A DNA stretch of 64,000 nucleotides from the NCBI GenBank assembly GCA_948466735.1, contig CAOKBR010000001.1, forward strand, positions 3,266 to 67,265. The letters run 5' to 3'. The notes under the pieces were generated by a model, which saw only the letters and a program-made list of their open reading frames with translations, was not told the DNA's origin and ran no database searches. Positions 7,229 through 58,744 of the stretch are shown here, in pieces. The first letter of the stretch is position 1; each line of letters opens with the position of its first letter. The position numbers and the translations under genes were made by a program. The DNA comes from an uncultured Mycoplasmatota bacterium. GTDB lineage: Bacteria; Bacillota_I; Bacilli_A; RF39; UBA660.

Positions 7229-7996
7229 TTGATTGTATACGTTGATTTATTTATGATATTAAATTTCTTTTTTGACTTATTTCTTTTGCTAAGTACAACC
7301 TCTTTTTTTAAACGCTATATAAAATGGTATCGACTCATTTTTGGTGCTGTCCTTGGTTTACTTAGTACATTGGTATTATTTTATTCTATATCTAACATAA
7401 TGCTACTTCTATTTCAAGGTGTTATTAGCTTATTAATGATAATTGCAACCTTTGGTTTTTCAGATATTTTAACATTAGGAAAACAACTTGCTATTTTTTA
7501 TTTTCATTCTTTGATTTTAGGAGGTTTTCTTACCCTTTTAAAACAACATTTTTCCTATAGCAACGCCATATGGCTTTTTATCTTAATTTTAAGCCCCATA
7601 TTTTTATATCTTTATGTAAAAATGATGAAAAGTGAAAAAAGTAAAATAAAACTACATTACAAAATAGAATTATTTCTTAATTCAAAAACGACATTACATT
7701 TAAATGCTTACTTAGATACAGGAAACCAACTTTATGAGCCTTATCATCATCATCCAGTGGTGCTAGTAAAGGAAAAACTAATCCCCATTAAAAAAATAAA
7801 AAAAGAACACATTTTACTAATTCCCTATGAAACCATTAGTGAAACTTCATTAATTAAATGTATAAAGATAGATAAAATGAGGATTGACTCAACTAGGGAA
7901 TATTTTGATGTATTTGTAGGACTTTGTGGAAATAAAGTAAATTTAGGAAATTATGATATGTTATTACATGTCGATTATAAGGAGGAGATAAAATGA
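7229..7996 (+). CDS. spoIIGA: sporulation sigma-E processing peptidase SpoIIGA
   Basis: TTG start. The polytopic N-terminus 'MIVYVDLFMILNFFFDLFLLL' matches B. subtilis SpoIIGA 'MKIYLDVIWLLNFCFD'. The C-terminal aspartic-protease motif 'LDTGNQLYEP' is present. It overlaps sigE by 4 nt. Confidence 0.8.
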   Translation: MIVYVDLFMILNFFFDLFLLLSTTSFFKRYIKWYRLIFGAVLGLLSTLVLFYSISNIMLLLFQGVISLLMIIATFGFSDILTLGKQLAIFYFHSLILGGFLTLLKQHFSYSNAIWLFILILSPIFLYLYVKMMKSEKSKIKLHYKIELFLNSKTTLHLNAYLDTGNQLYEPYHHHPVVLVKEKLIPIKKIKKEHILLIPYETISETSLIKCIKIDKMRIDSTREYFDVFVGLCGNKVNLGNYDMLLHVDYKEEIK

Positions 7997-9978: not shown

Positions 9979-12654
9979 ATGAAACAATACGTATATGATT
10001 TTGCTAATGGCAATAAAGAAATGAGAGAACTCTTAGGAGGAAAAGGTGCTAATTTAGCAGAAATGTTGAATTTAGGATTATCAGTCCCTCTTGGTTTTAC
10101 GATTTCTACCGAGGCGTGTCGTGATTATTACAATCAAGGAGAACAGTTAACAGAAAGTTTTATTAAAGAAGTATTGATGGGCATCGTTCGCTTAGAAGAA
10201 CAAACCCATCGCCAATTTGGAGATCCAATGCATCCATTATTGTTATCTGTTCGTAGTGGTGCTAGGGAATCGATGCCAGGAATGATGAATACTATTTTGA
10301 ATATAGGACTAAATGATGAGATTGTCGAAAAATGGGCTAGTAGAATGACAAATCCTCACTTTGCGTATGATTCTTATCGAAGATTAATTCAAATGTATGC
10401 CGATGTGGTAATGGATCTTGATGCTAGTAAATTTGAAGAAATTTTAACAGCAGTAAAACAGATAAGGGGAGTTAAATCAGATACTGAACTTAATCTTGAT
10501 GAGTTAAAACTATTAGTAGAAAGTTATAAAGTAGAATATAAAAATCAATCAAGACAAGATTTTCCACAAGATGTGCCACTTCAATTGATTGAAGCAGTAA
10601 AAGCCGTATTTCGTTCTTGGAATACCAAACGGGCGAAAGCCTACCGAGAGTTAAATCATATTCCTGATGATTGGGGTACAGCAGTTAATGTGCAACAAAT
10701 GGTCTATGGAAATATTAGTGAACAATCAGGAACTGGAGTAGTCTTTAGTCGTAATCCTAGTACTGGAGAAGATGGACTTTTTGGCGAGTTCATGATGAAT
10801 GCACAAGGAGAAGATATTGTTGCAGGTATTAGAACACCAATGGACATTGAAAAATTAGCAAAGATTGATAAAGAATGTTACCAAGAGTTAGTAAGAAATG
10901 CCAAAATTCTAGAACGTCATTATAAAGATATGCAAGATATGGAGTTTACTATTGAAAATGGTAAATTATATTTGCTTCAAACAAGAAATGGAAAAAGAAC
11001 AGCTAAAGCAGCAGTAAAAATTGCAACTGATATGGTAAAGGAGGGTTTACTTACTAAAGAAGAAGCCCTATTGAAAGTTTCTCCTAATCAGTTAGATAAT
11101 TTACTTCATCCATCGTTTGATGAAAAAGCGTTAAAGAAATTTGATTGCCTAGCAAAAGGGTTAGCAGCATCTCCAGGTGCTGCCGTTGGACAAATTTATT
11201 TTTCTACCAATGATTTAATTAAAGCAAAAGAAGATGGACATAAGGATTTAATTTTAGTAAGGATGGATACATCAGCTGAAGATATTGTGGGAATGCATCA
11301 AGCAAGAGGAGTGTTAACCTTACGCGGTGGAATGACATCTCATGCAGCAGTGGTTGCTCGTGGTATGGGAACTTGTTGTGTTTCTGGGTGTGAAGAATTA
11401 GAATTAGATGAAGAGAAGAAAATCTTAAAAAAAGGTAAAGTCATCTTAAAAGAGGGTGATGTTATCTCGATTGATGGAACAACAGGAGGGGTATATGTAG
11501 GAAGCATTCCTTTAGTAGATCCAATTTTAGATAATGATTTTAAAACATTTATGGGATATGCGAAAGAATTTGCCAAAATTAAGGTAAGAGCGAATGCCGA
11601 TACAGCAAAAGATGCCTTAATCGCATTAAGTTTTGGCGCTGAGGGTATTGGATTATGTCGAAGTGAACATATGTTTTTTGAACAGAACCGTCTTTTAGCC
11701 ATGAGAATGATGATTATTGCTAAAGATATGGAAGAGCGTCAAAGTGCCTTGGATGAGTTATTAGATTACCAAAGGGAAGACTATTTACAAATTTTTGAAG
11801 AAGCTAAAGGTGCTCCCGTTACTATTCGGTATTTAGACCCACCATTACATGAGTTTTTACCAAAAAAGACCCAAGATATTATTCACTTTGCAGAAAAACT
11901 TAAGAAAAAACCAGAAGAGGTAATGGATAGGATCAAAGAGTTACAAGAAGCTAATCCAATGATGGGACACCGAGGATGCCGTTTATCTATTACAAATCCT
12001 GAAATTACAATTATGCAAACAAGGGCAATTATAGAAGCGATGATTATTTGTCGTAGAAGAGATATTCCTGTTAATGTAGAGTTAATGATACCTCTAACTG
12101 TGGATACAAAAGAATTTGATGAGGTGAAGTCAATTATCGATCAAACGGCAAACTTTGTCATGCGAAAGGAAGTTATTGTGGTACCTTATCGTATTGGAAG
12201 CATGATTGAAACACCTAGAGCTTGTATTGTATCAAGAGAATTAGCAAAGCGTGTAGAATTTTACTCTTTTGGAACGAACGATTTAACACAATTAATGTAT
12301 GGCATTTCAAGAGACGATATGGCAAAATTTGTTCCTAAGTATATTGAGGATAAAGTGTTGTCTTTTGATCCGTTCAAACATATTGATGAACTTGGCGTAG
12401 GACGATTGATGAGAGTTGCAATAAGGGAAGCTAAGATAGTAAATCCTGATATTGAACTTGGAATATGCGGAGAACACGGAGGAGATCCTAAATCTATTTC
12501 TTTTTGTCATAAAATTGGCCTAAATTATGTATCTTGTTCTCCATACCGTGTACCAATCGCTTTAATTGCTAGTGCAAGAAGTGCGATAATGGAAGAGCAT
12601 AAGAATAGAAATAGTGACTCTAGCGAGGAAATAGAAGATTTTGAAATTATTTAA
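9979..12654 (+). CDS. ppdK: pyruvate, phosphate dikinase
   Basis: 891 aa. 'GGKGANLAEM', the phospho-His motif 'GGMTSHAAVVARGMG', and the PEP-utilising C-terminal 'GICGEHGGDP'. Confidence 0.95.
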   Translation: MKQYVYDFANGNKEMRELLGGKGANLAEMLNLGLSVPLGFTISTEACRDYYNQGEQLTESFIKEVLMGIVRLEEQTHRQFGDPMHPLLLSVRSGARESMPGMMNTILNIGLNDEIVEKWASRMTNPHFAYDSYRRLIQMYADVVMDLDASKFEEILTAVKQIRGVKSDTELNLDELKLLVESYKVEYKNQSRQDFPQDVPLQLIEAVKAVFRSWNTKRAKAYRELNHIPDDWGTAVNVQQMVYGNISEQSGTGVVFSRNPSTGEDGLFGEFMMNAQGEDIVAGIRTPMDIEKLAKIDKECYQELVRNAKILERHYKDMQDMEFTIENGKLYLLQTRNGKRTAKAAVKIATDMVKEGLLTKEEALLKVSPNQLDNLLHPSFDEKALKKFDCLAKGLAASPGAAVGQIYFSTNDLIKAKEDGHKDLILVRMDTSAEDIVGMHQARGVLTLRGGMTSHAAVVARGMGTCCVSGCEELELDEEKKILKKGKVILKEGDVISIDGTTGGVYVGSIPLVDPILDNDFKTFMGYAKEFAKIKVRANADTAKDALIALSFGAEGIGLCRSEHMFFEQNRLLAMRMMIIAKDMEERQSALDELLDYQREDYLQIFEEAKGAPVTIRYLDPPLHEFLPKKTQDIIHFAEKLKKKPEEVMDRIKELQEANPMMGHRGCRLSITNPEITIMQTRAIIEAMIICRRRDIPVNVELMIPLTVDTKEFDEVKSIIDQTANFVMRKEVIVVPYRIGSMIETPRACIVSRELAKRVEFYSFGTNDLTQLMYGISRDDMAKFVPKYIEDKVLSFDPFKHIDELGVGRLMRVAIREAKIVNPDIELGICGEHGGDPKSISFCHKIGLNYVSCSPYRVPIALIASARSAIMEEHKNRNSDSSEEIEDFEII

Positions 12655-12926
12655 GGAAAAAGCTTAGGTTTTAATTTTTTTAAAGAAAATCTAAGTTTTT
12701 TTATTGTTAAAGTGAACATTGATGATAACTACCTTAACCTTGAAGCAAAGGGGAATAATAATCTAGCCATAATAGATAATATTTGTGTAAATTAATGTTT
12801 TCAACTTATGAAAAAAGTGATATACTTTAGGCGTTGAAACTTTATTGATTTAACTAGATTATCTATAGGAAAATAAAGTAGATACAAATCAATAAAAATA
12901 GGTTAAATAAGAAATGAGGAGTAGCC

Positions 12927-30854: not shown

Positions 30855-33251
30855 ATGCAAAACAACATAGAGAAAAGAAAAATGGCTGTTGTTGTTATTG
30901 CTGTCATCATTGTTTTATTAGGTTCTTTATTCATCAATAAAGTGACACTGGATAAAAAAAGCATCAATCAAAATCGTCAAGAAAGTGAAAATCAAAATCA
31001 AGAAACACCAAAGGAAGATGATAATCACTTAGGTAATGAAGATGATTATCTAGACAATAATAAACAAGAAAACAATAATTCATCTTTAGAAGAATATTAT
31101 CCAATAAAGCCTACTATTTCTAATGGGAATTCTATTGATAAGGAAAAACCTAAGGTAGTACCTAACATTTCTTTACTTGGCAGTGACATCATTTATGTAG
31201 AAATCAATTCAAATTATGAAGATTTAGGCGCTATCGCAGAGGATTCTATCGATGGTAACATTACTGATAAAATTATAATTTATAATTCAGTAGATTTAAC
31301 CAAGTTAGGAACTTATACCATCTCATATTACGTTTCCAATACCAGTGGTCAAAGTGCTAGTGTGGAACGAACAATTGTAGTCTTTGATGATGTGAGTCCT
31401 ATTATTACGGTTAATCAAGAAATAGACAAAAAACTTGTATTTTTAGATGCTAATCGCAATTTAGAATTTATAAATCACGAAATTACGGTATGGGATAATT
31501 CTAATCATGATATAAGCTTAGAAATTAGTTATTGGTATCATCCGTTTATTGGTAATGCATTCAATCAAGAAGAAAATGATTTAACAACACTGGAATATAC
31601 TAAAGTAGAAAAACTTGATTTATCGCAACTAGGAATTTATCAATTAGATTATGTAGCAGTAGATGAAAGTGGCAATAGAAGTGATAAAGTATCCGTTTGG
31701 TATATGGTAAGGGATGTCAAAGGTCCTACGATTAAGTTATCTGTTATGGGAACTTCATATGCGATGATAAATCCTAAAACAATAATTGATGTTTTTGATG
31801 ATTTTAGTGATAAACTTAATACTTATTATGCTTGGTCAACATCAAATAAAATTGCACCAGTTGATTATCAAAACATTGCTAATCATCAAGAAGTATCACC
31901 AAGTAATGGGATACATTATCTATGGGTCAAAGCTGTAGATGAGTTTGGTAATACAACTGTATTGGTAAGTGATAAATTTGAAAAAGATGATACGTTATTA
32001 AAGATTCAAGAGTTTAAAACAAAAAAAGAAAATCATCAAAGTTTCATTCAAATTGGATTAGATTATGCTAACATTAAAAAAATAGATGAGATTAGTCAAA
32101 TTAAGCTATCGCTATACCACGATGAAAAGTTAATTGCTAGTGCGGTTAGTAATGATAAGTTATACAATCTAAGTTTAAATCAGGATAAATTATCACTTAG
32201 AACAAAGATAGTTATTCAAGGCGAAAAAGACGAGAGTAGTGTATTTGATGTAACAGAAGAAAATGGTAGATATCATCTAGAAAATCCAATAACAACCTTG
32301 GTGGTTACCTTAATAAAGGATAATGGTCAAGTATTAGAAGTAGAAAGTACATCTATAGATGAGTCAAATATTTGGTGGGAACAATTGTTTGTAGATTTTG
32401 ATTATTTAGTTGGAAAAAATAGGGGAGATTACTCTACTATTCAAGAGGCGATAAACGAAATATCAAATGATAAATTGTTATATCTTTTACCAGATACATA
32501 TATAGAGGATTTAACGATTTCTAAGAATGTGATTATTTTAGGAACGGATAAAGAAAAAACCATTATCAAGGGAACTACAAGCATAATGGGAAACATTGAT
32601 GTATCACTAGTGAACTTGACGCTTCAATCTAGTTTAGAAAGTCCTGCTGTAATCACCTTAAATGATGGTACGCTACAAATGGTTGATAGCATTATCGAAG
32701 ATGGAAAAGTAGGAATTAACGCTACAGGAAACGCAATTTTAAGATTAAATGGCGTTTTGATAAAGAATTTTGTTGATTCTGCCATAATCGCTCAAGATAA
32801 TGTTTCATGTAACATTACAGATAGTGAAATCATTGGAACAACTAAGAATGAAAATGGTATTATTTTATTGGATAATGCATCTAGTAATATATCTAATTCC
32901 ATTTTTAGCAATTTAAACTATGGTATTCGCATTCATGAAAAGTGTAAAGATAATGTAAAGTTAGGGGAGGGGATAACTTTCTCTAATTGTATAGAAGACT
33001 TACATATGGATATGGATGATGCTATAGATGAAGATATCATTAATGATGATACATTAAATCAAGTAGATACAAAAGATGAAGATTTGGAAACTAATGATGA
33101 ATTAACAAGTGAAAATTTATCTATAGAAAATCTAGATGATTCAATGAGCCTTAATGAAACTTTAGACTCTAATGAAATTTTAGAAACATCATCGATGGAT
33201 TCTATTACAACAACAGAAGATATTATAATAGATCAAGCTATTATAGAATAA
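30855..33251 (+). CDS. large secreted/surface protein with Ig-like repeats, a right-handed beta-helix region and an acidic C-terminal tail
   Basis: 798 aa with an N-terminal signal anchor. Repeated 'D(D)V.(S)P.I' Ig-like starts. The Asn/Ile-rich region 'ITDSEIIGTTKNENGIILLDNASSNISNSIFSNLNYGIRIH' is typical of pectate-lyase-fold repeats. The C-terminus is D/E-rich. Confidence 0.5.
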   Translation: MQNNIEKRKMAVVVIAVIIVLLGSLFINKVTLDKKSINQNRQESENQNQETPKEDDNHLGNEDDYLDNNKQENNNSSLEEYYPIKPTISNGNSIDKEKPKVVPNISLLGSDIIYVEINSNYEDLGAIAEDSIDGNITDKIIIYNSVDLTKLGTYTISYYVSNTSGQSASVERTIVVFDDVSPIITVNQEIDKKLVFLDANRNLEFINHEITVWDNSNHDISLEISYWYHPFIGNAFNQEENDLTTLEYTKVEKLDLSQLGIYQLDYVAVDESGNRSDKVSVWYMVRDVKGPTIKLSVMGTSYAMINPKTIIDVFDDFSDKLNTYYAWSTSNKIAPVDYQNIANHQEVSPSNGIHYLWVKAVDEFGNTTVLVSDKFEKDDTLLKIQEFKTKKENHQSFIQIGLDYANIKKIDEISQIKLSLYHDEKLIASAVSNDKLYNLSLNQDKLSLRTKIVIQGEKDESSVFDVTEENGRYHLENPITTLVVTLIKDNGQVLEVESTSIDESNIWWEQLFVDFDYLVGKNRGDYSTIQEAINEISNDKLLYLLPDTYIEDLTISKNVIILGTDKEKTIIKGTTSIMGNIDVSLVNLTLQSSLESPAVITLNDGTLQMVDSIIEDGKVGINATGNAILRLNGVLIKNFVDSAIIAQDNVSCNITDSEIIGTTKNENGIILLDNASSNISNSIFSNLNYGIRIHEKCKDNVKLGEGITFSNCIEDLHMDMDDAIDEDIINDDTLNQVDTKDEDLETNDELTSENLSIENLDDSMSLNETLDSNEILETSSMDSITTTEDIIIDQAIIE

Positions 33252-33618: not shown

Positions 33619-34077
33619 TTATTTTACAATAATTTCAAATGAAGCGTTATTAGTAACCACACCTGAATAAAAGATAAGTGAGTATTTATCCTTTATAGGA
33701 ACCTCATAAATTAGTTCATAGGTAATTTCCTCATTTGATGGTATAGACATATTTTCGCTAGAAACAGGCGAATAAGGCTTGTTGTCTATCAATAAGGAAA
33801 AACTATTACTATTTATATTAGCACTGTTTTTGCTGGTGTTTTTAATCTTAAAAGATAAAAGCATAATCTTGTTTCCATCGCTTGCAGTTAAATGCAAATA
33901 TTCATCTTTAAAGGTTGCCTCCTTTAACATAATTTGAAAATGATCTATCTTTGCAAGTTCTTCTACTCGATAAGAAGTTTTATTTTCTTCCTTTAAAGAT
34001 AAATCCTGACATCCCGTCAAAAAGGGAATACTAATTATTCCTACAAATAAAAATTTTAATAATTTACTTTTTTTCAT
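33619..34077 (-). CDS. lipoprotein
   Basis: Signal peptide with lipobox 'FLTGC'; 152 aa, beta-rich. Confidence 0.55.
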   Translation of the reverse strand: MKKSKLLKFLFVGIISIPFLTGCQDLSLKEENKTSYRVEELAKIDHFQIMLKEATFKDEYLHLTASDGNKIMLLSFKIKNTSKNSANINSNSFSLLIDNKPYSPVSSENMSIPSNEEITYELIYEVPIKDKYSLIFYSGVVTNNASFEIIVK

Positions 34078-37762: not shown

Positions 37763-37791
37763 AGAAAACAAAAAGAACCGAAGTCCTTTTT
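37763..37791 (-). terminator. rho-independent terminator after essC (minus strand)
   Basis: Minus strand reads aaaaaggac-UUCG-gttcttttt then gtttt; the stem has one G.U pair. Confidence 0.4.
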
Positions 37792-40700
37792 ATAAAATCT
37801 CCTCGATATTATCATTACCACTTTGATTAGCCTCACTAGTCGTGTTAGAAGTAATTTTTGTAGAATCAAACTCTTCGATAAATTTAACTTGTACTGGACG
37901 ACTACGTGTTACAACAAAGCCAAAGTATGGTGGTAACTCTTCTCGATGTTCCCTAGTCACTTTGTTAATTTTTAAGGTAAATTGATCTCCTAAACCATTC
38001 CCTAAGTAAATTCCATAATTTGGATTTACCACATTTTTATACCAGGATTCTAGCTCTAGTCGTTTTGCTTTCTCCACATTTGCTACAATAATAAAGTGAA
38101 TTAATCCTAGGAATTTGCCCTTTTCTAAGACGCTTGCTAATAAGCTTCTATTTTCTTCATTTAACTTACTTCTAAAAGCATCAAATCCAATAATTGTACA
38201 AATAATCTTCTTTCTACTTGCAATAAAGTCTCTATTTTGATTTTTTTCTTGATATTCTATGAAAACGTCATCAATTGTTTTTTTCAACCATAAGAAGATT
38301 TCATCAAATTCTTTTTCATAATAGGAATATCCAGCATTAGGCTTAAATCCAACAATTTCTTCGGCATTAATCACTAAAACTTGTTCACGATTTAAATAGA
38401 CTAACTCATTGGTTAACGCCTTATAAAAACTAGAAAACTCTAAAATATCTTGTCCTAGAATTAAATTGACATACTGCTTAGTAAAATTAAATCCCAGTGG
38501 TTCTAAGTTTTCTTTTGCAATACCTAAAATAGGTAGTCCATTCTTTAAATAAGGATAAACATGTTTCGTTTCTACTCGTTTTGGTAAAATAGGAATGCTT
38601 CTAGCCTTTTCAAATTTTTCTGCCAAATGAGAAACGACCTTTCTAATATAATCAGGAATTTGATCAACTGGTGATACAAACGCGGTTTGAAATTCATATA
38701 TTTCTCCAAGATTTACTAAACCTCGACCTAGTATTTTTGACGGATACATTTTTTGAACATTTCCTAAAATATTACTATAATCCATGACATTCGTTTGTTG
38801 AAGTACGTACTCCATCGCAAAATTTTGTCTTACTTTAAAGCGAATGCCATTTAAATTGTTGATGGTTAACACAAAATAAATCCCATATTTTGGGGCTTCC
38901 CTTGTTAACTGGAAGAACTCATCTTCATACTTACTAAATGACTCTTGATAAGCTTCATAATTATTAATAACAACCACAATTTGAGGAATTTCCTTTCCAC
39001 TTTGCTGTAAAAAACCTTGAATAGTTCCATTAAATGGTGCAAACAATTGTTTTCTTTTTTCAATAATATCATCCATCATTTTATAAAAGTTATCCATTTT
39101 CTCATCTTCAGTCACTGTGATAATATCACCTACTTGTGGAGCATTTTCAAAACTTTTTAGCGTCTCTGATCCAAAGTCTAGTAAATAAATATTTACTTCA
39201 TTCGTTGTATATGTAGTAATTAACGAGTAAAATAATGTCGTTAAAAAGTTTTCTTTACCGCTACCAGTCATTCCATAGATAATTGCATTACCATTTTCAC
39301 TAAAAGGAATAGTTAACAAAGATTGACTTTGCTTATTTGGCATATCATATTCTCCAACAATGGGATTGATTATATGTTTTACTTTTTGGTATTGATACTT
39401 TTGAATTAAGCCTTGAACAGCAATATAACTAGGAAGTTTCTCTAACCATAAAGGACGCACCTTAATATTTATCTGTTTTGCCGCTTGAATTAAATAAGTA
39501 ACAATATTACTTAACTCTTCCCCGTGAGCTTCTATTTTTTCTTTTTTATGTTCAACATCCACTTCATGATAAATCACACCAATGTCATCAATAAATTCCA
39601 GCTTAGTATCCACTTCTTTTCTTGGCTTATCAACAGGTAAATAAGTTGCACCGCACCATGCTGCTTGACCTAAGACAAAAATTTCATTATATCCTACTTG
39701 TAAATAAAATCTTCCTGTTTGCGTTAATAATGCAGCTTCAGGAGATTTAATTACCTCGGTACTATCAGATTTTTCTTGAACACGTAAACATACCCTAAAT
39801 CTTGTATTACTCCAAATTTGATTATCCACGATACCTGATGGTTTTTGTGTTGCTAAGATCAAGTGAACGCCTAGGCTTCTACCAATTCTAGCAGTAGAGA
39901 TCAACTGTTGCATAAATTCTGGTTGTTGTGTTTTTAACTCTGCAAATTCATCGGTAATGATAAATAAATGGGAAATGGCCTCATCAACCACCCCTGCTCG
40001 ATATAATTGTTGGTACTTATAAATATCAATCGTATTTTCTTTTGATTTAGCACGCGCTTCATTAAACATTCTCTGCCGACGCTTTAACTCACTATCAATT
40101 GATGCAAACGAACGTTTAATCTCAGTTGCATCCAAGTTAGTAATGGTTCCTACTAAATGTGGTAATCTCTCACCTGTTAAATGATTTTCTAAACTTCCAC
40201 TTAATCCTCCACCTTTATAGTCAATCAAAATAAATTGAACTTCTTCTGGATGATAATTAACTGCCATTGATAAAATGTAAGTAATTAAAAGTTCACTTTT
40301 ACCACTACCTGTCATTCCAGCAACTAAACCATGAGGTCCAGCGTATTTTTCATGTAAATCCAAGCGAATTAACTCTTGATTTTTTCCAACGCCAATAGGT
40401 GCTTGTAATGATTGAATCGGGTTATTTTTCTGCCATCTAGAAATCGCATTTAACTGTTCCACAGTACCAATTTGATACATATTTAAAAAGCTTAACTTAC
40501 TTGGTAGTTTTCCTTCCACATTTAAAGTAATATCTAAAGGAATATTGGCTAAGACTCTAGCGCATTCTTCTAATTCTAAAGGGGTTGTAAAATCAATTTG
40601 AAATCTAGTTGTATTTGCGTTTAGTACATTGGCAAACAAATCAGAGTTTTTACTATTCGCATGAATAAACGTTTGACAAGATGTTGGAAGTGTTGATACA

Positions 40701-42439
40701 TTATCATTTAAGATAATCACACTAAAGCCCATATTCTTCTTACTTTCTAAAATGTGATTAATAAAATCAAAGTGTCGAACAGCTTTAAAATCGTCAATAA
40801 TTAATAAATAATGAAAAGGTATTGTATCCTCTTCTATTCTTTTTGATAAGTCGTGTTCTAGAAAATAACAAACTTCTTTTATATCGTCAGTATTAGAAGC
40901 AAAAAAACGCATTTTTTTATCATCACGGAAACAGTGAGGTAGAAATTTACTAAACTTCCAATCTTCCTTTTGACATTCATTAGTAAAAATTACAATTTTT
41001 AAATCATCATAAGAATGAAATGCCACAAGTTGTAAAATAATATTTTCAATCAATCTTTGGTTGACCTTTCTATTACCGATGATAGCGACAATATATTGTT
41101 CAACTAATGATAACGTAATAGGAACATCTACTAAATTTTTAGGTTCACTCCCTAGCGAATTTAGCATTTCTCGTAAATTATCTTCTTCTAAAGTAAAATG
41201 TTCTACTGGATAGTCAATACTAATTTTCATTGGAATAGTACCCATTCCAAGGCTTACCGTTAAAAAGTCTTGCTCTTCCTTTTTTCGCTCCCACAAATTA
41301 AATTTTTGATGAAGAATTACTTGTTTACATTCTTCTAGTGATAAATTATTTTCTAATAAAATATGTCTTTGCTGACGAATGGTATCAATAATTACTTGAC
41401 GTTTTTCTTCGATATATTCTCTATATTTCTTTTGACGTTTGGCTTCTTGCTTTTTTTGTTTTCTCTTATCAAAACGATTTGTTACAATAGGCCATAAAAT
41501 AACCGATGACATCATCGCTACACACATGACAATCGATGGTAAGACATTAATTAACTTAGCATTATTGTTTACTACATTATTAACAGCAACTAATCCCATC
41601 ATAGCAGATGACATTCCCATGGTAACCATTGGTCCTATAATAAGTAATAAAGGTCGATCATCTTCATTTACCTTGCTAGGAGGAGGGTCAATCACCATTT
41701 TTAATTCAGTTAAAATCGCCCGAAATCTAGGTTTTTTATGAAAATATGATGAGTCTTGATAAAGTTCTAACTCAATAAGTTCGTCACTTTCATTAACTGG
41801 AGCGATATATTCTTTTATTTGTTCTAAGATTAAAGGCGTTTTACACACCACTTTTTGAAAAGGCGAATTCACATTTAATAAAATTCCATCTTTTTTGATG
41901 ATAAAAACAATCTTTAATCCCATAAAAAATAAAATATCACCCGATGTTAATGCTTTAGGTTCAATTAATAATTGATGATTTAAATATACATTTTGATCAT
42001 GCATAAGATTACTAAGAATATATGATCCATTTTGATAAGTAATCTTTGCTTGAGTTGGCTTTAAGTATTCACTAGGATAGCAAATTGTATCTTCTTTGCT
42101 ACTACCAATAGTAATTTCACTTAGTAGCTCTACACGATAAAAACGATTACTAGAATCTAATAAAGGAGCCATGTATAAATACATTAACTCATGTGTCGAT
42201 ACATTTTCTAACGTATAAAAATGATACTCCTCTAAAACAACACTAGGAATCGTCATTCCCTGTTGTTTTATTGCCACTTCATAATTACTTAGTAAAACCC
42301 AATGATTTTCTTGTGCTACTACATTAATTAAGTTATCTTCACTATTAGCAAATAAATCTTTTATCCAGTAATTACCAAAAACTTGACGAGGAAGGGCAAA
42401 ATTTTTCATTTTTCCATTTTTTATGATGGACCCTTGCAT
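37790..42439 (-). CDS. essC: type VII secretion system FtsK/SpoIIIE-family ATPase EssC (YukB-like)
   Basis: 1549 aa. N-terminal FHA-like region, two TM helices, and three FtsK-type ATPase domains ('GMTGSGKSE', 'GMTGSGKEN', plus a third degenerate one). Confidence 0.9.
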   Translation of the reverse strand: MQGSIIKNGKMKNFALPRQVFGNYWIKDLFANSEDNLINVVAQENHWVLLSNYEVAIKQQGMTIPSVVLEEYHFYTLENVSTHELMYLYMAPLLDSSNRFYRVELLSEITIGSSKEDTICYPSEYLKPTQAKITYQNGSYILSNLMHDQNVYLNHQLLIEPKALTSGDILFFMGLKIVFIIKKDGILLNVNSPFQKVVCKTPLILEQIKEYIAPVNESDELIELELYQDSSYFHKKPRFRAILTELKMVIDPPPSKVNEDDRPLLLIIGPMVTMGMSSAMMGLVAVNNVVNNNAKLINVLPSIVMCVAMMSSVILWPIVTNRFDKRKQKKQEAKRQKKYREYIEEKRQVIIDTIRQQRHILLENNLSLEECKQVILHQKFNLWERKKEEQDFLTVSLGMGTIPMKISIDYPVEHFTLEEDNLREMLNSLGSEPKNLVDVPITLSLVEQYIVAIIGNRKVNQRLIENIILQLVAFHSYDDLKIVIFTNECQKEDWKFSKFLPHCFRDDKKMRFFASNTDDIKEVCYFLEHDLSKRIEEDTIPFHYLLIIDDFKAVRHFDFINHILESKKNMGFSVIILNDNVSTLPTSCQTFIHANSKNSDLFANVLNANTTRFQIDFTTPLELEECARVLANIPLDITLNVEGKLPSKLSFLNMYQIGTVEQLNAISRWQKNNPIQSLQAPIGVGKNQELIRLDLHEKYAGPHGLVAGMTGSGKSELLITYILSMAVNYHPEEVQFILIDYKGGGLSGSLENHLTGERLPHLVGTITNLDATEIKRSFASIDSELKRRQRMFNEARAKSKENTIDIYKYQQLYRAGVVDEAISHLFIITDEFAELKTQQPEFMQQLISTARIGRSLGVHLILATQKPSGIVDNQIWSNTRFRVCLRVQEKSDSTEVIKSPEAALLTQTGRFYLQVGYNEIFVLGQAAWCGATYLPVDKPRKEVDTKLEFIDDIGVIYHEVDVEHKKEKIEAHGEELSNIVTYLIQAAKQINIKVRPLWLEKLPSYIAVQGLIQKYQYQKVKHIINPIVGEYDMPNKQSQSLLTIPFSENGNAIIYGMTGSGKENFLTTLFYSLITTYTTNEVNIYLLDFGSETLKSFENAPQVGDIITVTEDEKMDNFYKMMDDIIEKRKQLFAPFNGTIQGFLQQSGKEIPQIVVVINNYEAYQESFSKYEDEFFQLTREAPKYGIYFVLTINNLNGIRFKVRQNFAMEYVLQQTNVMDYSNILGNVQKMYPSKILGRGLVNLGEIYEFQTAFVSPVDQIPDYIRKVVSHLAEKFEKARSIPILPKRVETKHVYPYLKNGLPILGIAKENLEPLGFNFTKQYVNLILGQDILEFSSFYKALTNELVYLNREQVLVINAEEIVGFKPNAGYSYYEKEFDEIFLWLKKTIDDVFIEYQEKNQNRDFIASRKKIICTIIGFDAFRSKLNEENRSLLASVLEKGKFLGLIHFIIVANVEKAKRLELESWYKNVVNPNYGIYLGNGLGDQFTLKINKVTREHREELPPYFGFVVTRSRPVQVKFIEEFDSTKITSNTTSEANQSGNDNIEEIL

Positions 42440-42539
42440 AACGTTTCCCCTTTTCTCTTTTAAAATTTCATTTTCTTATCCAAAAGATGAACCCAATTAC
42501 TTTTGGATAAAAAAACTTAGTGTTTTTAATTAAGTTTTT

Positions 42540-42839
42540 TTAATTTGAATTTCCAATAACAGATTGATCGACACTGCGATAATTTTCAACAACTTTCATT
42601 AAGTAGCGATGACAATCATCAATTGCTTGGACAAATTGTGGAAATTTTGCGCTTAACGTATCAAATTGTTCTCTAGTGTGACTAGCAGAAACTCCAGCCC
42701 AAATTTCTTCTGTTCCAATTAAACGAAACAAAGATTGGATATCATTATTTAATAATGCATCCATTTGATTAGCAGCAGATTTTAACTGTTCTGCCAAAGA
42801 CATTATTTGTTCATAAGTTAATTTTGAACCACCTAGCAT
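42540..42839 (-). CDS. WXG100-family protein
   Basis: 99 aa, helical, central 'EEIWAGVSA' (W-x-G). Confidence 0.55.
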   Translation of the reverse strand: MLGGSKLTYEQIMSLAEQLKSAANQMDALLNNDIQSLFRLIGTEEIWAGVSASHTREQFDTLSAKFPQFVQAIDDCHRYLMKVVENYRSVDQSVIGNSN

Positions 42840-42853
42840 TTTTTTTCTCCTTT

Positions 42854-43141
42854 CTATAAGTTAATTGCCCCTTCATTATCTTGACATGCTTGTTCGTATG
42901 CAGTTGCTACTCTTACCACCGTTTGTCCTAACTCTTCAATAGTATCAGACAATTTTTGCATGTACTGAGATTGTTCGGTGATTGCATTAGAATACTTCAT
43001 GGCATCACTTCCTTGCCATGCATCTTTTAACTGATTATTAATATTCATAATCTTGTTTAAAAGTTCACGAAATTCTTGACCTTTATTAGCGATTTGATTT
43101 CCTGTAGTTCTAGTTTCTTCGTAATTGATGTTTAAATCCAT
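42854..43141 (-). CDS. esxA: WXG100-family protein, EsxA/ESAT-6-like
   Basis: 95 aa with 'LKDAWQGSDAMKY' placed centrally. Confidence 0.65.
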   Translation of the reverse strand: MDLNINYEETRTTGNQIANKGQEFRELLNKIMNINNQLKDAWQGSDAMKYSNAITEQSQYMQKLSDTIEELGQTVVRVATAYEQACQDNEGAINL

Positions 43142-43243
43142 ATTGCCACCCCCTTTCCATCCTTAGCCTCTTTACTAATTCTATAATCTTATATAAATTA
43201 TATCATAAAAAAGTAAATTCAAGCAACCATTCTTTTTTGATGA

Positions 43244-44968
43244 TTATTTGTTTTTGATAAAATTAAGATATTTATCATAAGAACTATCTTTCATGTTATC
43301 AACGTATTTATACCACCAATCGTATTCTGTTCCTTGACTATCTTTATAATGGTTTGGATTTTGTACCCAGTTATTATCGTAAATATTACTTCCCTTTGCT
43401 GGTACCCATTCTGCATTAGCTCCATTATATAAAGGGTTCATGTTATAGGCTAAACTTTTTTCAGGATCATAGTAACTTTGTTCTTTTACCCAATCTAAGT
43501 AAGATTCCATTAACTTGGCTTGGGCATCTGTTCCATTTTCAATACTAGCAATAATATCGACATTACCATTTTCATCTAATACAGAAAAATCTTTATAATC
43601 TCCATTAGCACGCAAACCACCATAATTAAATTTATTTTGGGCAAGATTACTAGCGCCTAATCCACCTTCGAAATCCATAATCGCAAGAATTGTTGCTACG
43701 GTATCTTTATCTTCTATTCCATGACTAGCTAATGCATCAACCATTTTCATGCGAACTATATCAGGATTAATAATTTGCTTGCCCTTATATTCAGTGTAAA
43801 ACATATCATCGGTAACATTGATTTCTACCTTTGGCACTTTTTCACTACTTTCCTTTTCGTTTGTATTTTTATGATCAACTTTTTTCTCTTCCTTAAGGAC
43901 TGTTACTATTTTAGCAGGTTCAGTAAATAAGGAAGCTTTAGCATCGGTAGTAACACCTTCTGATTCCTTTAAACGATTAACATCCATCGCTCCAGCAAAA
44001 ATATTTTTAAATTCTTCTAGTTGAATATCTGCTAAATGATAAGTAGCATAAGCACGTATTCCTGTTTCTAGACCACTGGCCATTTTATGTTCAGATAAAG
44101 CATCTTCCAGCGCTTCAATGTTTTCAATGTAAGCATTCCACCACGAATGAATATTGCTATAACCTTGATTTACTGCTTCATAAAACTCTTTTAATTCTCC
44201 TGCTACTCGGTTGTTATTAGCATCTTCACCATTAATAGCTCCACAGCTTAAATATTCCTGATAACTATTTGCATACTCATTCATTCGTTCATTAAATGTT
44301 GCAAAGGTATCTTTTAATCCTTGCATATTGACCAAAAATTCATTTTCATTAAATGAATTAAAATAATCAATCGTATCAGCGCTTTTATAAGAAGACATAC
44401 TAGATTTGATAGAAAAATTTTCAATTACTATTAATTGTGCGTTTAATTTTTCTAAAACAATCGTTAATGCAGCGTTAGCTTTTTCAATTTCTTGCTCTAG
44501 CCTTGAAATTTCTGCTGCTACTTCTGGGACAATCACTTGTTTTGTTACAGTATTTCCGTTTTCATCAGTTACAGTGATGGTACGATATAGTTTAGGTAGT
44601 AGTGAAGATATTTCAGCTTGCATAGCATCAATACTTCCTTGAATGGTTTTTGCCTCTGCTTCATAACTTTTATAAGTATCTACATGATCTAAAAACTCAT
44701 TATATGACATTAATCCTGCCACTAAATCTTGATAACGATTTCCAAGTTGTCCCATTAAGCTAGATAATTTACTAGCACTTTCACACCTTGCTACGCTAGG
44801 AGTAGAAATTTGATGAGCCATCTCTTTTGTTTTTGCACGTGATGCTGTTGCTATAGCGTTTGAAGTCATTGTTCTAGTGACATTAGAATCAAAAGAAACT
44901 TTCCCTACTACTCTTGATGCTGCAAGCCTTTGAGCATCAACTTGGTTGTTTAACTGATAATTTCTCAT
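43244..44968 (-). CDS. T7SS-associated large helical protein with a C-terminal GH73 glucosaminidase-like (FlgJ/AcmA-type) domain
   Basis: 574 aa with no TM segment. The long N-terminal region is helical and coiled-coil. The C-terminus 'MDFEGGLGASNLAQNKFNYGGLRA' matches the GH73 core 'ILESGSGTSALAQNHNNLFGIK'. Confidence 0.5.
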   Translation of the reverse strand: MRNYQLNNQVDAQRLAASRVVGKVSFDSNVTRTMTSNAIATASRAKTKEMAHQISTPSVARCESASKLSSLMGQLGNRYQDLVAGLMSYNEFLDHVDTYKSYEAEAKTIQGSIDAMQAEISSLLPKLYRTITVTDENGNTVTKQVIVPEVAAEISRLEQEIEKANAALTIVLEKLNAQLIVIENFSIKSSMSSYKSADTIDYFNSFNENEFLVNMQGLKDTFATFNERMNEYANSYQEYLSCGAINGEDANNNRVAGELKEFYEAVNQGYSNIHSWWNAYIENIEALEDALSEHKMASGLETGIRAYATYHLADIQLEEFKNIFAGAMDVNRLKESEGVTTDAKASLFTEPAKIVTVLKEEKKVDHKNTNEKESSEKVPKVEINVTDDMFYTEYKGKQIINPDIVRMKMVDALASHGIEDKDTVATILAIMDFEGGLGASNLAQNKFNYGGLRANGDYKDFSVLDENGNVDIIASIENGTDAQAKLMESYLDWVKEQSYYDPEKSLAYNMNPLYNGANAEWVPAKGSNIYDNNWVQNPNHYKDSQGTEYDWWYKYVDNMKDSSYDKYLNFIKNK

Positions 44969-44980
44969 TACTGTACACCT

Positions 44981-45289
44981 CTATTCAATATAAAAACTAT
45001 CGTCCATAGTAGACATAATTTTTTTATCTAATTGTTGATAATTTTCTTTCGTTTTTTGTAAAACACTAATACATTTTCTTAATTCAACATCTACACTTTC
45101 TATACTATTTACAAAATTTGTTAAACGATTAGCATAGAAATCAGCAGCCCTACCTTGCCATAGACTTTTTTGATTTATTGTATTTGATACTTGTTTTACT
45201 TGTTCTAGCGTATGATTGATATCTTCTACAATGGAAGTAAATTCCACAATACAAGAATCAACTTTTTCATAAGACATTTTCTCTTTCAT
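44981..45289 (-). CDS. small WXG100-like helical protein
   Basis: Start refined to 'MKEKMSYEKV' after GGAG. Central 'SLWQGRAADFY' W-x-G motif. Confidence 0.45.
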   Translation of the reverse strand: MKEKMSYEKVDSCIVEFTSIVEDINHTLEQVKQVSNTINQKSLWQGRAADFYANRLTNFVNSIESVDVELRKCISVLQKTKENYQQLDKKIMSTMDDSFYIE

Positions 45290-45299
45290 GATTATCTCC

Positions 45300-45593
45300 T
45301 TATATGTTGATGTTTCTTTGGGCAAATGTTTTATCTAATAGTTCATATGCTCCTGGTACTTTATTTAAATATGTTCCATAGTGATTAATTTGTTTGGCTA
45401 ACTCTTGTAATCCAATGATATATTTGCTACGGATAGCATCTTGGTAAATATTAGCATCTTCCCCACTCCATGCTTCTTGTAACTGCTCCAGCAATTGATT
45501 TAATTGTTGGATTTTTTGATTAATTTGATTTGAACACTCCATTAATTCTAATCCCAAATGACGAATTTCTTCTTTTTTAATTTCAGTAATCAT
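45300..45593 (-). CDS. small WXG100-like helical protein
   Basis: Start refined to 'MITEIKKEE' after AAAGGA. Central 'QEAWSGEDANIY' W-x-G motif. Confidence 0.5.
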   Translation of the reverse strand: MITEIKKEEIRHLGLELMECSNQINQKIQQLNQLLEQLQEAWSGEDANIYQDAIRSKYIIGLQELAKQINHYGTYLNKVPGAYELLDKTFAQRNINI

Positions 45594-45606
45594 AAATATA
45601 TCCTTT

Positions 45607-45861
45607 CTATAACAATATGAGTTTAGTACCATTCCGAATATCTGTTTGTTCTAAAAGCATTTGATCTAAATATTCTTCATGAGTAATTTGATTGAGTAGA
45701 GTATAGGCATATGTCGAGATATACCTTCCATCAGATAATTCGCCAACGGCCTTTTTTAATAATTTTTTAATCGAACCTATGGTTAATTGAATAGGTAAAA
45801 ATATATCGTATTCTTCTTCAATCAAAGGGACAAATAGACGCACCAATACTTTGTTTTTCAA
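45607..45861 (-). CDS. esaB: EsaB/YukD-like small ubiquitin-fold T7SS protein
   Basis: 84 aa, GGAGG RBS, first gene of the cluster. Size and position match YukD/EsaB. The sequence match itself is weak. Confidence 0.45.
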   Translation of the reverse strand: MKNKVLVRLFVPLIEEEYDIFLPIQLTIGSIKKLLKKAVGELSDGRYISTYAYTLLNQITHEEYLDQMLLEQTDIRNGTKLILL

Positions 45862-58108: not shown

Positions 58109-58330
58109 TTATCTAATCACATCAATTAATGTACGAATCATTTCAATTCCTTGGGAAATTTGATTTACTTTATCTTCCATTGTCAATTTATAACGTTGTT
58201 TCATTTCTTTTTCCATCTCTTTAATGGCTAATGGATTTCGATTCAATTTTTTATACCAGTAAGAATACTCTCGTAAATAACGATATAAATTGGGATTAGA
58301 TCTAATTTGCATTTGTAAATCGATACTCAT
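58109..58330 (-). CDS. YlbE-like small protein
   Basis: 'YRYLREYSYWYKKLNRNPLAIKEMEKEMKQRY' resembles B. subtilis YlbE 'WRYIEHHPDWYRRLSRNP...' as recalled. Confidence 0.4.
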   Translation of the reverse strand: MSIDLQMQIRSNPNLYRYLREYSYWYKKLNRNPLAIKEMEKEMKQRYKLTMEDKVNQISQGIEMIRTLIDVIR

Positions 58331-58680
58331 TAATCATCAAACCTTTGGTAACGATTTCTAGGCTCATAACTTCTTGGGTTTTGATTATTTCCTGTTAAAT
58401 GCAAATCTTGGACTAAAGTAATCGCTTTTTGTAGTCCTGCTACCCCTTTTCTTACCGTTTCTAAATCTACTTTTTTAATCATGTTAAATAATTCTTGTAA
58501 AGAACCATCGTCCTTTGTTGTAGTAGGATTACTATTTAAATAAGGTTTCCAAACTTCATGATCTTCGCCATACATTTCATACATCTCATAATATTTTTGC
58601 CATGTTCCTTGATTGTTTAATACCGCTTTTGCTAATTCAGGGTGAACCTTGGCAAATTGTTTAAAACTTTCCTTCGACAT
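58330..58680 (-). CDS. YlbD-like putative spore coat protein
   Basis: 'FKQFAKVHPELAKAVLNNQGTWQKYYEMYEMYGED' resembles the YlbD family. Start refined to the ATG after GGTGA. Confidence 0.4.
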   Translation of the reverse strand: MSKESFKQFAKVHPELAKAVLNNQGTWQKYYEMYEMYGEDHEVWKPYLNSNPTTTKDDGSLQELFNMIKKVDLETVRKGVAGLQKAITLVQDLHLTGNNQNPRSYEPRNRYQRFDD

Positions 58681-58744
58681 ACATATCACCTATTAAAAGT
58701 GTATGCGATAAAATCAAATTGTTGATGTGAATTAGACGAATTTC

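Follow-up and report, generated by a model that had tools for sequence, protein, structure and literature searches.

The operon and its genes

The minus strand of a 64-kb stretch of DNA from an uncultured Mycoplasmatota bacterium (the window, comprising 64,000 nucleotides (nt) of contig CAOKBR010000001.1 in assembly GCA_948466735.1) carries a seven-gene type VIIb secretion system (T7SSb) operon, whose second and third open reading frames (ORFs) are the subject of this work. ORF A (45300..45593) encodes 97 amino acids (aa) from an ATG start preceded by GAAAGGA, and ORF B (44981..45289) encodes 102 aa from an ATG start preceded by AAGGAG. An initial annotation of the sequence had described the two products as helical proteins of about 100 aa with a central W-x-G, encoded a short distance ahead of a large putative effector and apart from two canonical WXG100 genes next to essC. 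All of these features were recovered, the helices by full-length matches to the WXG100 profile.

The operon is read in the order 84-aa gene, ORF A, ORF B, 574-aa gene, esx1, esx2, EssC. It opens with the 84-aa gene (45607..45861, TTG start) and continues beyond ORF B with the gene for the 574-aa protein (43244..44968). The canonical WXG100 genes follow: esx1 (EsxA-like; 42854..43141, 95 aa), which scores 49.5 bits against Pfam WXG100 and 48.7 bits against TIGR03930, and esx2 (EsxB-like; 42540..42839, 99 aa), with 31.7 bits to Pfam WXG100. The last gene of the cassette encodes EssC, the FtsK/SpoIIIE-type T7SSb ATPase (37790..42439, 1549 aa; TIGR03928 T7_EssCb_Firm, 1011.7 bits with a cut-off of 778.4). 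Gaps of 13 nt (84-aa gene to ORF A), 10 nt (ORF A to ORF B) and 12 nt (ORF B to the 574-aa gene) separate the first four genes, and a Shine-Dalgarno-like sequence lies at each start. No terminator-like site was found on the minus strand between the operon genes. A promoter scan returned no more sites than shuffled sequence, and no promoter is claimed.

ORF A and ORF B are real genes under purifying selection. The 97- and 102-aa products are recorded identically by independent gene callers. Comparison with the orthologous operon of a second species (L004-L007, including the metagenome-assembled genome GCA_949440065.1) gave ratios of nonsynonymous to synonymous substitution rates (dN/dS) of 0.13 for ORF A and 0.08 for ORF B, at dS values of 0.67-0.96. 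In the same comparison the 84-aa gene has a dN/dS of 0.06, esx1 and esx2 are each 96% identical to their orthologues, and the 574-aa protein is 78% identical to its own.

The 84-aa product has no Pfam or NCBIfam match, and a profile of nine orthologues misses YukD in the PDB. An orthologue of 84-85 aa opens every related cassette in which the contig covers that position (it is partial in L011). Identity with EsaB/YukD (PF08817) is possible, as a provisional label taken from size and position.

ORFs A and B in the WXG100 superfamily

Both proteins match Pfam WXG100 (PF06013) over their full length (ORF A, E 6.1e-6, 26.9 bits; ORF B, E 5.1e-6, 27.1 bits), and TIGR03930 scores them at 25.1 and 32.1 bits, respectively, relative to a cut-off of 44.85. 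The best PDB match of the A-family profile is EsxB (4iyh, E 6e-4), with EsxA also among the best; that of the B-family profile is S. aureus EsxA (2vs0, E 8e-5). No Lap chain of 8gmh was matched by either profile in this search. Profile evidence places ORF A and ORF B in the WXG100 superfamily, with helices assigned from the full-length match.

Profile-profile alignment (hhalign) pairs ORF A with esx1 (98.3%, E 1.8e-14) and ORF B with esx2 (98.7%, E 3e-16). The corresponding values are 91.6% (E 8.3e-7) for ORF A with ORF B and 92.7% (E 4.3e-7) for esx1 with esx2. Because the A-esx1 and B-esx2 alignments outscore those within each pair, the A/B pair is best described as a duplicated, diverged copy of the core esx1/esx2 pair that now forms separate orthologous groups. 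Profiles built from seven or eight orthologues (alignments A4 and A5) score members of their own family at 117-155 bits, versus 18-62 bits for the canonical genes (hmmsearch). The A family has 52 members in a large protein collection, none of them named, and 41 of these are exactly 97 aa long.

Searches with profile hidden Markov models (HMMs) did not bear out the Lap-type DUF3130/DUF3958 likeness suggested in the initial annotation. DUF3130 (Lap1, PF11328) detects ORF B only, at E 0.015 and 16 bits with a cut-off of 25, and does not detect ORF A; the Lap1 model TIGR04197 matches neither protein. DUF3958 (Lap2) gives no match at E up to 1 for ORF A, ORF B or their homologues in L010, and neither ORF matches the Lap3/Lap4 families (DUF5344/DUF5082) within that E limit. 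The YwqH-like family PF16888 aligns with 27 residues of ORF A (E 0.063, 14 bits; cut-off 33.7).

The WxG turn lies at W42-S-G44 in ORF A (nt 45462..45470) and at W44-Q-G46 in ORF B (nt 45152..45160). Toward the C-terminus, ORF A carries Y83-E-L-L-D87 and ORF B carries Y84-Q-Q-L-D88-x-x-I-x-x-x-M. Across the A family WxG is present in all 52 members and Y-x-x-x-[D/E]-x-x-hydrophobic near the C-terminus in 50; Y-x-x-x-[D/E] occurs in all eight aligned B proteins. In the canonical pair the motif occurs in esx2 only (Y-R-S-V-D), esx1 having no acidic residue at +4 of its C-terminal Tyr. The FxxxD motif of Lap1 is required for export of TelD (PMC9600955), and EsxD carries YxxxE; together these are the required or proposed export signals (PMC9600955, PMC10653861). 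The A/B motif differs from that of Lap1 in having Tyr in place of Phe, and DxxTxxxGN was not observed. The YxxxD/E of A and B is analogous to the T7SS export arm and probably corresponds to it.

Architecture of the 574-aa protein

The 574-aa protein as a whole has no Pfam, NCBIfam or PDB sequence match. Homology divides it into four parts, all encoded on the minus strand: a C-like module (residues 1-197; 44378..44968), homologous to a free-standing helical protein of 156-169 aa that we call C; a helical targeting domain (residues 205-335; 43964..44356), homologous to the N-termini of polymorphic toxins; a Lys/Glu-rich, poorly conserved linker (residues 336-390; 43799..43963); and a C-terminal cargo domain (residues 391-574; 43244..43798) that is probably lysozyme-like or GH73-like.

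An exhaustive HMMER search of 1.84 billion representatives with the 574-aa protein aligned residues ~210-330 with residues ~5-125 of about 40 proteins ranging from 87 to 1594 aa (P0011-P0050), and returned no match for residues 1-205. A word-index homologue search performs poorly on these low-complexity, AT-rich proteins: the 574-aa query returned itself and missed its 78%-identical orthologue, and a query with the domain alignment A1 returned 3 fragments only. The 205-335 domain forms the extreme N-terminus of many polymorphic toxins of 400-1600 aa whose C-termini vary, some of which look, when read by eye, like ADP-ribosyltransferases, HExxH peptidases or transglutaminases. In these relatives the domain is N-terminal; here it is internal, behind the fused C module.

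The C-like module was identified by BLASTP against the 157-aa protein of L010 (residues 46-163, 29% identity, E 9e-12), and the free-standing C protein aligns end to end with residues ~21-197 (family alignment A6). With hmmsearch, the 574-aa protein scores 189.5 bits for the C module and 108.7 bits for the 205-335 domain. These alignments describe the protein as a natural fusion of partner C, a toxin-family targeting domain, a linker and a putative hydrolase domain. The fusion is not an assembly artefact, since it is seen in several independent assemblies of two species and all of its parts are under purifying selection. That C is fused to the effector implies a single physical unit in which partner set and targeting domain work together.

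The initial annotation had likened the layout to that of LXG effectors preceded by two small partners; the number of partners found is three (A, B and C), and LXG membership did not survive the search. Pfam LXG (PF04740) matches neither the 574-aa protein nor any of 35 members of the domain family. The 205-335 domain has no Pfam WXG100 match and no PDB match (matches to bromodomains are spurious), and a profile search with the C family found no PDB match. The targeting domain is LXG-like by context, not by Pfam.

AlphaFold2 (AF2) places helices at residues 63-126, 148-191, 215-241, 250-293 and 301-334, with a beta hairpin at 128-146. The predicted coiled coil is confident at residues ~90-185 only; the predicted local distance difference test (pLDDT) is 79-96 for residues ~90-180 and falls below 55 for residues 63-89. 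On this model the C-like module would form a long coiled coil with a beta hairpin. The linker, with a pLDDT below 50, is the stretch least conserved between the two orthologues (dN 0.32). Foldseek searches with the full-length and cargo models gave nothing significant; matches to prefoldin and the V-ATPase stalk were rejected as generic coiled coil.

Conserved gene order in related cassettes

Nine cassettes from uncultured low-GC Bacilli (L010, L012-L017, L019 and L020) encode C as a separate protein. Their order is 84-aa gene, esx1, esx2, A, B, C, usually DUF4176, toxin(s) and EssC, with one to three toxins that share the same N-terminal domain and with small immunity-type genes before EssC. 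The window and L004 differ in reading 84-aa gene, [A, B, C~effector], esx1, esx2, essC, with the block ahead of esx1/esx2. The succession of A-B and then C plus effector is kept in eleven distinct loci, the window and L004 included; hmmsearch established the order in the window, L004, L010 and L012-L017, and L019 and L020 were assessed from the arrangement and lengths of their genes. Every locus that bears A, B and C has exactly one of each, directly upstream of the protein or proteins with the 205-335 domain, and B orthologues always lie directly downstream of A. The cassettes occupy different chromosomal sites, flanked by unrelated housekeeping genes. The A-B-effector block moves as one unit.

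L009 and L010 illustrate the unfused arrangement: the 84-aa gene, esx1, esx2, A and B (32% identity to ORF A, E 3e-21; 30% to ORF B, E 7e-16) are followed by a 157-aa helical protein, DUF4176 (94.6 bits) and a toxin of 883 or 911 aa. An ADP-ribosylglycohydrolase immunity-type gene lies after the toxin in L009; the L010 contig ends just past the toxin. An LXG-type context of small helical partners, DUF4176, immunity genes and EssC recurs in L010, L012-L015, L017, L019 and L020.

Two loci depart from this pattern. L016 (9030..20294 of OW818670.1, a complete 1.49-Mb genome) has one A-B-C set followed by effectors of 442, 424 and 460 aa, which share their N-terminal domain; a small gene or EssC follows each effector, and DUF4176 is missing. 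L011 (1..4557) has no free A or C gene, and the cargo genes that separate its 84-aa gene from EssC are limited to two fusion genes, directly upstream of EssC. One encodes P0037 (377 aa), in which the toxin-type N-terminal domain is fused to another C-terminal region; this region looks SLT-like by motif, with no Pfam match on record. The other encodes a 315-aa protein that joins a B-like WXG domain to a CHAP hydrolase.

Further genes adjoin some cassettes. Genes for Ser/Thr protein-kinase domains (251-256 aa) lie next to toxin genes in L013 (3370..4125), L020 (14625..15395) and L009 (6922..7692). L004 has, directly downstream of essC, an extra gene for a 456-aa signal-peptide protein (11511..12881) that is absent from the window.

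A candidate cell-wall hydrolase as cargo

Within the cargo domain, residues 407-523 match P0010 (40% identity) and P0015 (36% identity) over ~110 residues (HMMER), with E-x-G-x-G-x-S...N-N-x-G-G as a common motif. Both of these homologues have a hydrophobic N-terminal stretch, which we read as a putative membrane anchor. The motif E-x-G-x-G-x-S...N-N-x-x-G is conserved in four cargo-domain homologues, and the candidate catalytic residue is E434, within DFEGGLGAS...NYGG. P0010 gives a sub-threshold match to Pfam Glucosaminidase (PF01832; E 4e-4, 21.4 bits, cut-off 30.2); the window's 574-aa protein itself has no match to this family of glycoside hydrolase family 73 (GH73). The best PDB match of the cargo profile, weak at E 0.075, is a phage cell wall hydrolase, aligned over the ETGxGxS...NNxxG motif. 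Foldseek on the poor AF2 model of the cargo (pLDDT 46.7) lists the GH73 proteins Auto and FlgJ only at E above 1.

On this evidence the cargo is probably a GH73-like peptidoglycan glycosidase without a Sec signal. Since its homologues have a hydrophobic N-terminal stretch, this suggests that a T7 module has taken the place of Sec targeting in an extracellular enzyme. DUF4176, which has been proposed to be required solely by toxins that have a long middle domain and is absent for the short, extracellularly acting TelC (PMC10801868), is likewise absent from the window cassette. This fits the TelC case, because the effector has no long hydrophobic middle domain and would act outside the cell. No candidate immunity gene was found in the window operon. 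The cargo could serve as an antibacterial wall-degrading effector, or in remodelling the producer's own wall for secretion; both roles are possible.

Proposed role of ORFs A and B

We consider it fairly probable that A and B are a diverged EsxA/EsxB-like duplicate that has specialised as export partners (targeting factors) of the adjacent effector, and comparative genomics supports an effector-export role for them well. An effector-linked module apart from the canonical pair had been the proposal of the initial annotation, and it agrees with the conservation of the block in eleven loci, its movement as a unit and the fusion of partner C to the effector. The grouping of A and B with generic WXG100 proteins, which that annotation had named as an outcome contrary to its own view, did come about; Lap family membership falls with it, and the proposed role is left standing.

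Mechanistically, A and B, each a helix-turn-helix hairpin, would bind along the helical first 335 residues of the 574-aa protein, a region that already holds the third partner, C (residues 1-197), fused in cis, together with the targeting domain (residues 205-335). The assembly would be an elongated helical pre-secretion shaft displaying WxG turns and C-terminal YxxxD/E arms, to be recognised by EssC, the ATPase whose gene closes the operon. The exported shaft would then drag the C-terminal cargo, the probable GH73-like hydrolase, to the cell wall. A and B are probably co-exported rather than retained, because both keep the secretion-type motif.

Several observations weigh against this proposal. 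The Pfam WXG100 scores of ORF A and ORF B lie just under the 27.3-bit curated cut-off, and no Lap family is matched. No sequence similarity of the targeting domain to Pfam LXG, or to the TelA LXG domain of known structure, could be detected, and the domain's conserved turn is S-Y-L-x-x-C-S-D, not L-x-G. AF2 models of the effector are of low confidence (full length, pLDDT 58 and predicted template modelling score 0.33; cargo domain, pLDDT 46.7), and the matches behind the putative hydrolase assignment are sub-threshold. Because a single set in L016 precedes three effectors, the partners may be generic for the domain family rather than specific to an effector; and because all of the genes share EssC's operon, adjacency alone could mean mere operon membership.

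This last point leads to an alternative in which A and B would be generic T7SS substrates, a further secreted WXG100 heterodimer that serves its own function, is dispensable for export of the 574-aa protein and sits beside the gene of that protein only through a shared operon. Both proteins are ordinary WXG100 members by sequence, closest to EsxB and EsxA and paralogous to esx1/esx2, and both combine WxG with YxxxD/E as autonomous substrates do, without matching a Lap family. We nevertheless hold an independent heterodimer to be somewhat unlikely. In none of the eleven loci is the A-B-C set parted from its effector or effectors, and where the gene order differs the set has shifted together with the effector. 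In the window the adjacent partner C is joined to the effector by fusion, and in S. aureus a WXG100 protein, EsxB, has been proven to partner an effector (PMC10653861).

It is improbable that A and B are cytoplasmic chaperones or targeting factors which deliver the effector to EssC and themselves stay in the cell, although Lap1 and Lap2 were not detected in supernatants (PMC9600955) and the genomic arrangement is the same as that of the lap genes. A and B have lost none of the WXG100-type secretion features (WxG and YxxxD/E), co-export has been described for Lap3/Lap4 and EsxB/C/D (PMC10801868, PMC10653861), and the B-like domain of L011 is the N-terminal module of a CHAP hydrolase that presumably leaves the cell.

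That A, B or both are immunity or neutralising proteins for the hydrolase domain would account for the lack of any other candidate immunity gene in the operon, and is hardly credible given that they are homologous to WXG100 secretion substrates, that their families accompany toxins with unrelated C-termini and immunity-type genes of their own, and that a cell-wall hydrolase has no cytoplasmic target needing protection. Finally, the idea that the two ORFs are chance open frames in AT-rich DNA, to which the 30% G+C of the window and the presence of overlapping alternative starts lend some colour, is refuted by conservation and practically untenable, given dN/dS values of 0.08-0.13, a near-constant length in the 52-member A family, and ribosome-binding sites. 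We thus retain the view of A and B as export partners of the adjacent effector.

A possibly reduced cassette and its wider meaning

No match to the EssA, EssB or EsaA families was found in the cassettes or their flanks (window 37790..45861; L010, L012-L017, L019, L020), and the machinery candidates in each cassette are EssC, the 84-85 aa protein and the WXG100-like genes only. This may represent a minimal T7SSb, or the remaining components may be encoded elsewhere.

A more far-reaching reading joins these elements for a clade of uncultured small-genome gut Bacilli. The seven-gene cassette would be a self-sufficient minimal type VIIb system without EssA, EssB and EsaA; A, B and C together with the non-LXG domain would form a new class of composite export signal; and the cargo would be a FlgJ-like hydrolase that opens the producer's own wall and not an interbacterial toxin. 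An own-wall hydrolase fits in that no immunity gene is present here and the cargo of L011 is two putative wall hydrolases with T7 targeting domains. Taken as a whole, we regard this joint reading as clearly unlikely.

Effector recognition in type VIIb systems has so far been explained through a few partner families, namely Lap1-4 and EsxB/C/D. The export-partner role proposed for A and B would add a further solution, in which duplication of the core WXG100 pair, and its recruitment alongside a third helical protein, supplied the escort of a toxin family. The targeting domain of that family is missed by current HMMs; public data carry no annotation for the family, which seems to be abundant in gut metagenomes. 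The fusion of C to the effector fixes which partner end adjoins the N-terminus of the targeting domain, and offers a simpler three-chain complex for structural work. A wall hydrolase, if the cargo truly is one, would be uncommon among T7SS substrates; its use could be antibacterial, or it could open the wall for a minimal secretion cassette.

The rest of the 64-kb window is housekeeping. SpoIIGA and a YlbD-type coat protein (7229..7996 and 58330..58689) indicate a spore-forming, wall-bearing Firmicute with 30% G+C. The window contains a full-length match to 6S RNA (RF00013; 22179..22367, plus strand; 71.7 bits), and no other Rfam family reaches its gathering score there. A gene at 30855..33251 encodes a secreted or surface protein of 798 aa that has repeated domains and an N-terminal region rich in Glu, Asp and Asn, and whose positional counterpart in L004 is an 803-aa product with Bact_surface_Ig-like listed; a DUF4352-type lipoprotein gene (33619..34077) lies nearby.

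Comparison with known systems

A and B share with the canonical EsxA/EsxB (ESAT-6/CFP-10) pair a length of about 100 aa, a central WxG and a nearby FtsK/SpoIIIE ATPase gene. They differ from it in being always tied to the effector block, and in the acidic residue that the A family carries at +4 of Tyr.

The putative cargo invites comparison with wall hydrolases that accompany other secretion machines. The GH73 domain of flagellar FlgJ is exported by its own secretion machine, and EssH of S. aureus has a Sec signal peptide. FlgJ resembles the present case in being a peptidoglycan hydrolase encoded with a secretion apparatus that crosses a thick wall. EssH, a T7SS-dedicated CHAP cell-wall hydrolase (PMC13059805), is likewise encoded with, and possibly serves, the secretion apparatus; unlike EssH, the candidate hydrolase here carries T7SS targeting modules and no Sec signal, and a role in apparatus assembly is speculative.

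The Lap1/Lap2 and Lap3/Lap4 partners of S. intermedius Tel toxins are also small alpha-helical WXG100-like proteins encoded directly upstream of a polymorphic T7SS toxin (PMC9600955, PMC10801868). One partner there carries an aromatic-xxx-acidic export motif, to which the YxxxD/E of A and B is analogous. As in those systems, DUF4176 tracks the long middle domain of the toxins. The cassette described here differs in that HMMs place neither A nor B in any of the four Lap families, the partners number three rather than two, and WxG is retained; its toxin domain is not Pfam LXG and has no conserved LxG turn.

The closest known mechanism is most likely that of S. aureus EsxB/EsxC/EsxD-EsaD (PMC10653861), with a further likeness to the streptococcal Lap-LXG complexes. 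Here, unlike in the EsaD complex, WXG100 paralogues of the core pair make up two of the three partners, each of them bearing YxxxD/E, the third is fused to the effector, and no EsaE-type chaperone or immunity gene is present. Sequence homology to EsxC/EsxD is lacking, the targeting domain is undetectable as PF04740, and the cargo is a probable cell-wall hydrolase where that of EsaD is a nuclease. What the two share is a set of three small helical partners, those of EsaD being encoded directly upstream of the T7SSb effector, with at least one true WXG100 partner (EsxB in S. aureus) and one partner with a C-terminal YxxxE arm. EsaD's helical N-terminal domain is a divergent LXG domain, and a long helical shaft bearing a globular cargo is the likeness that we propose between the two assemblies.

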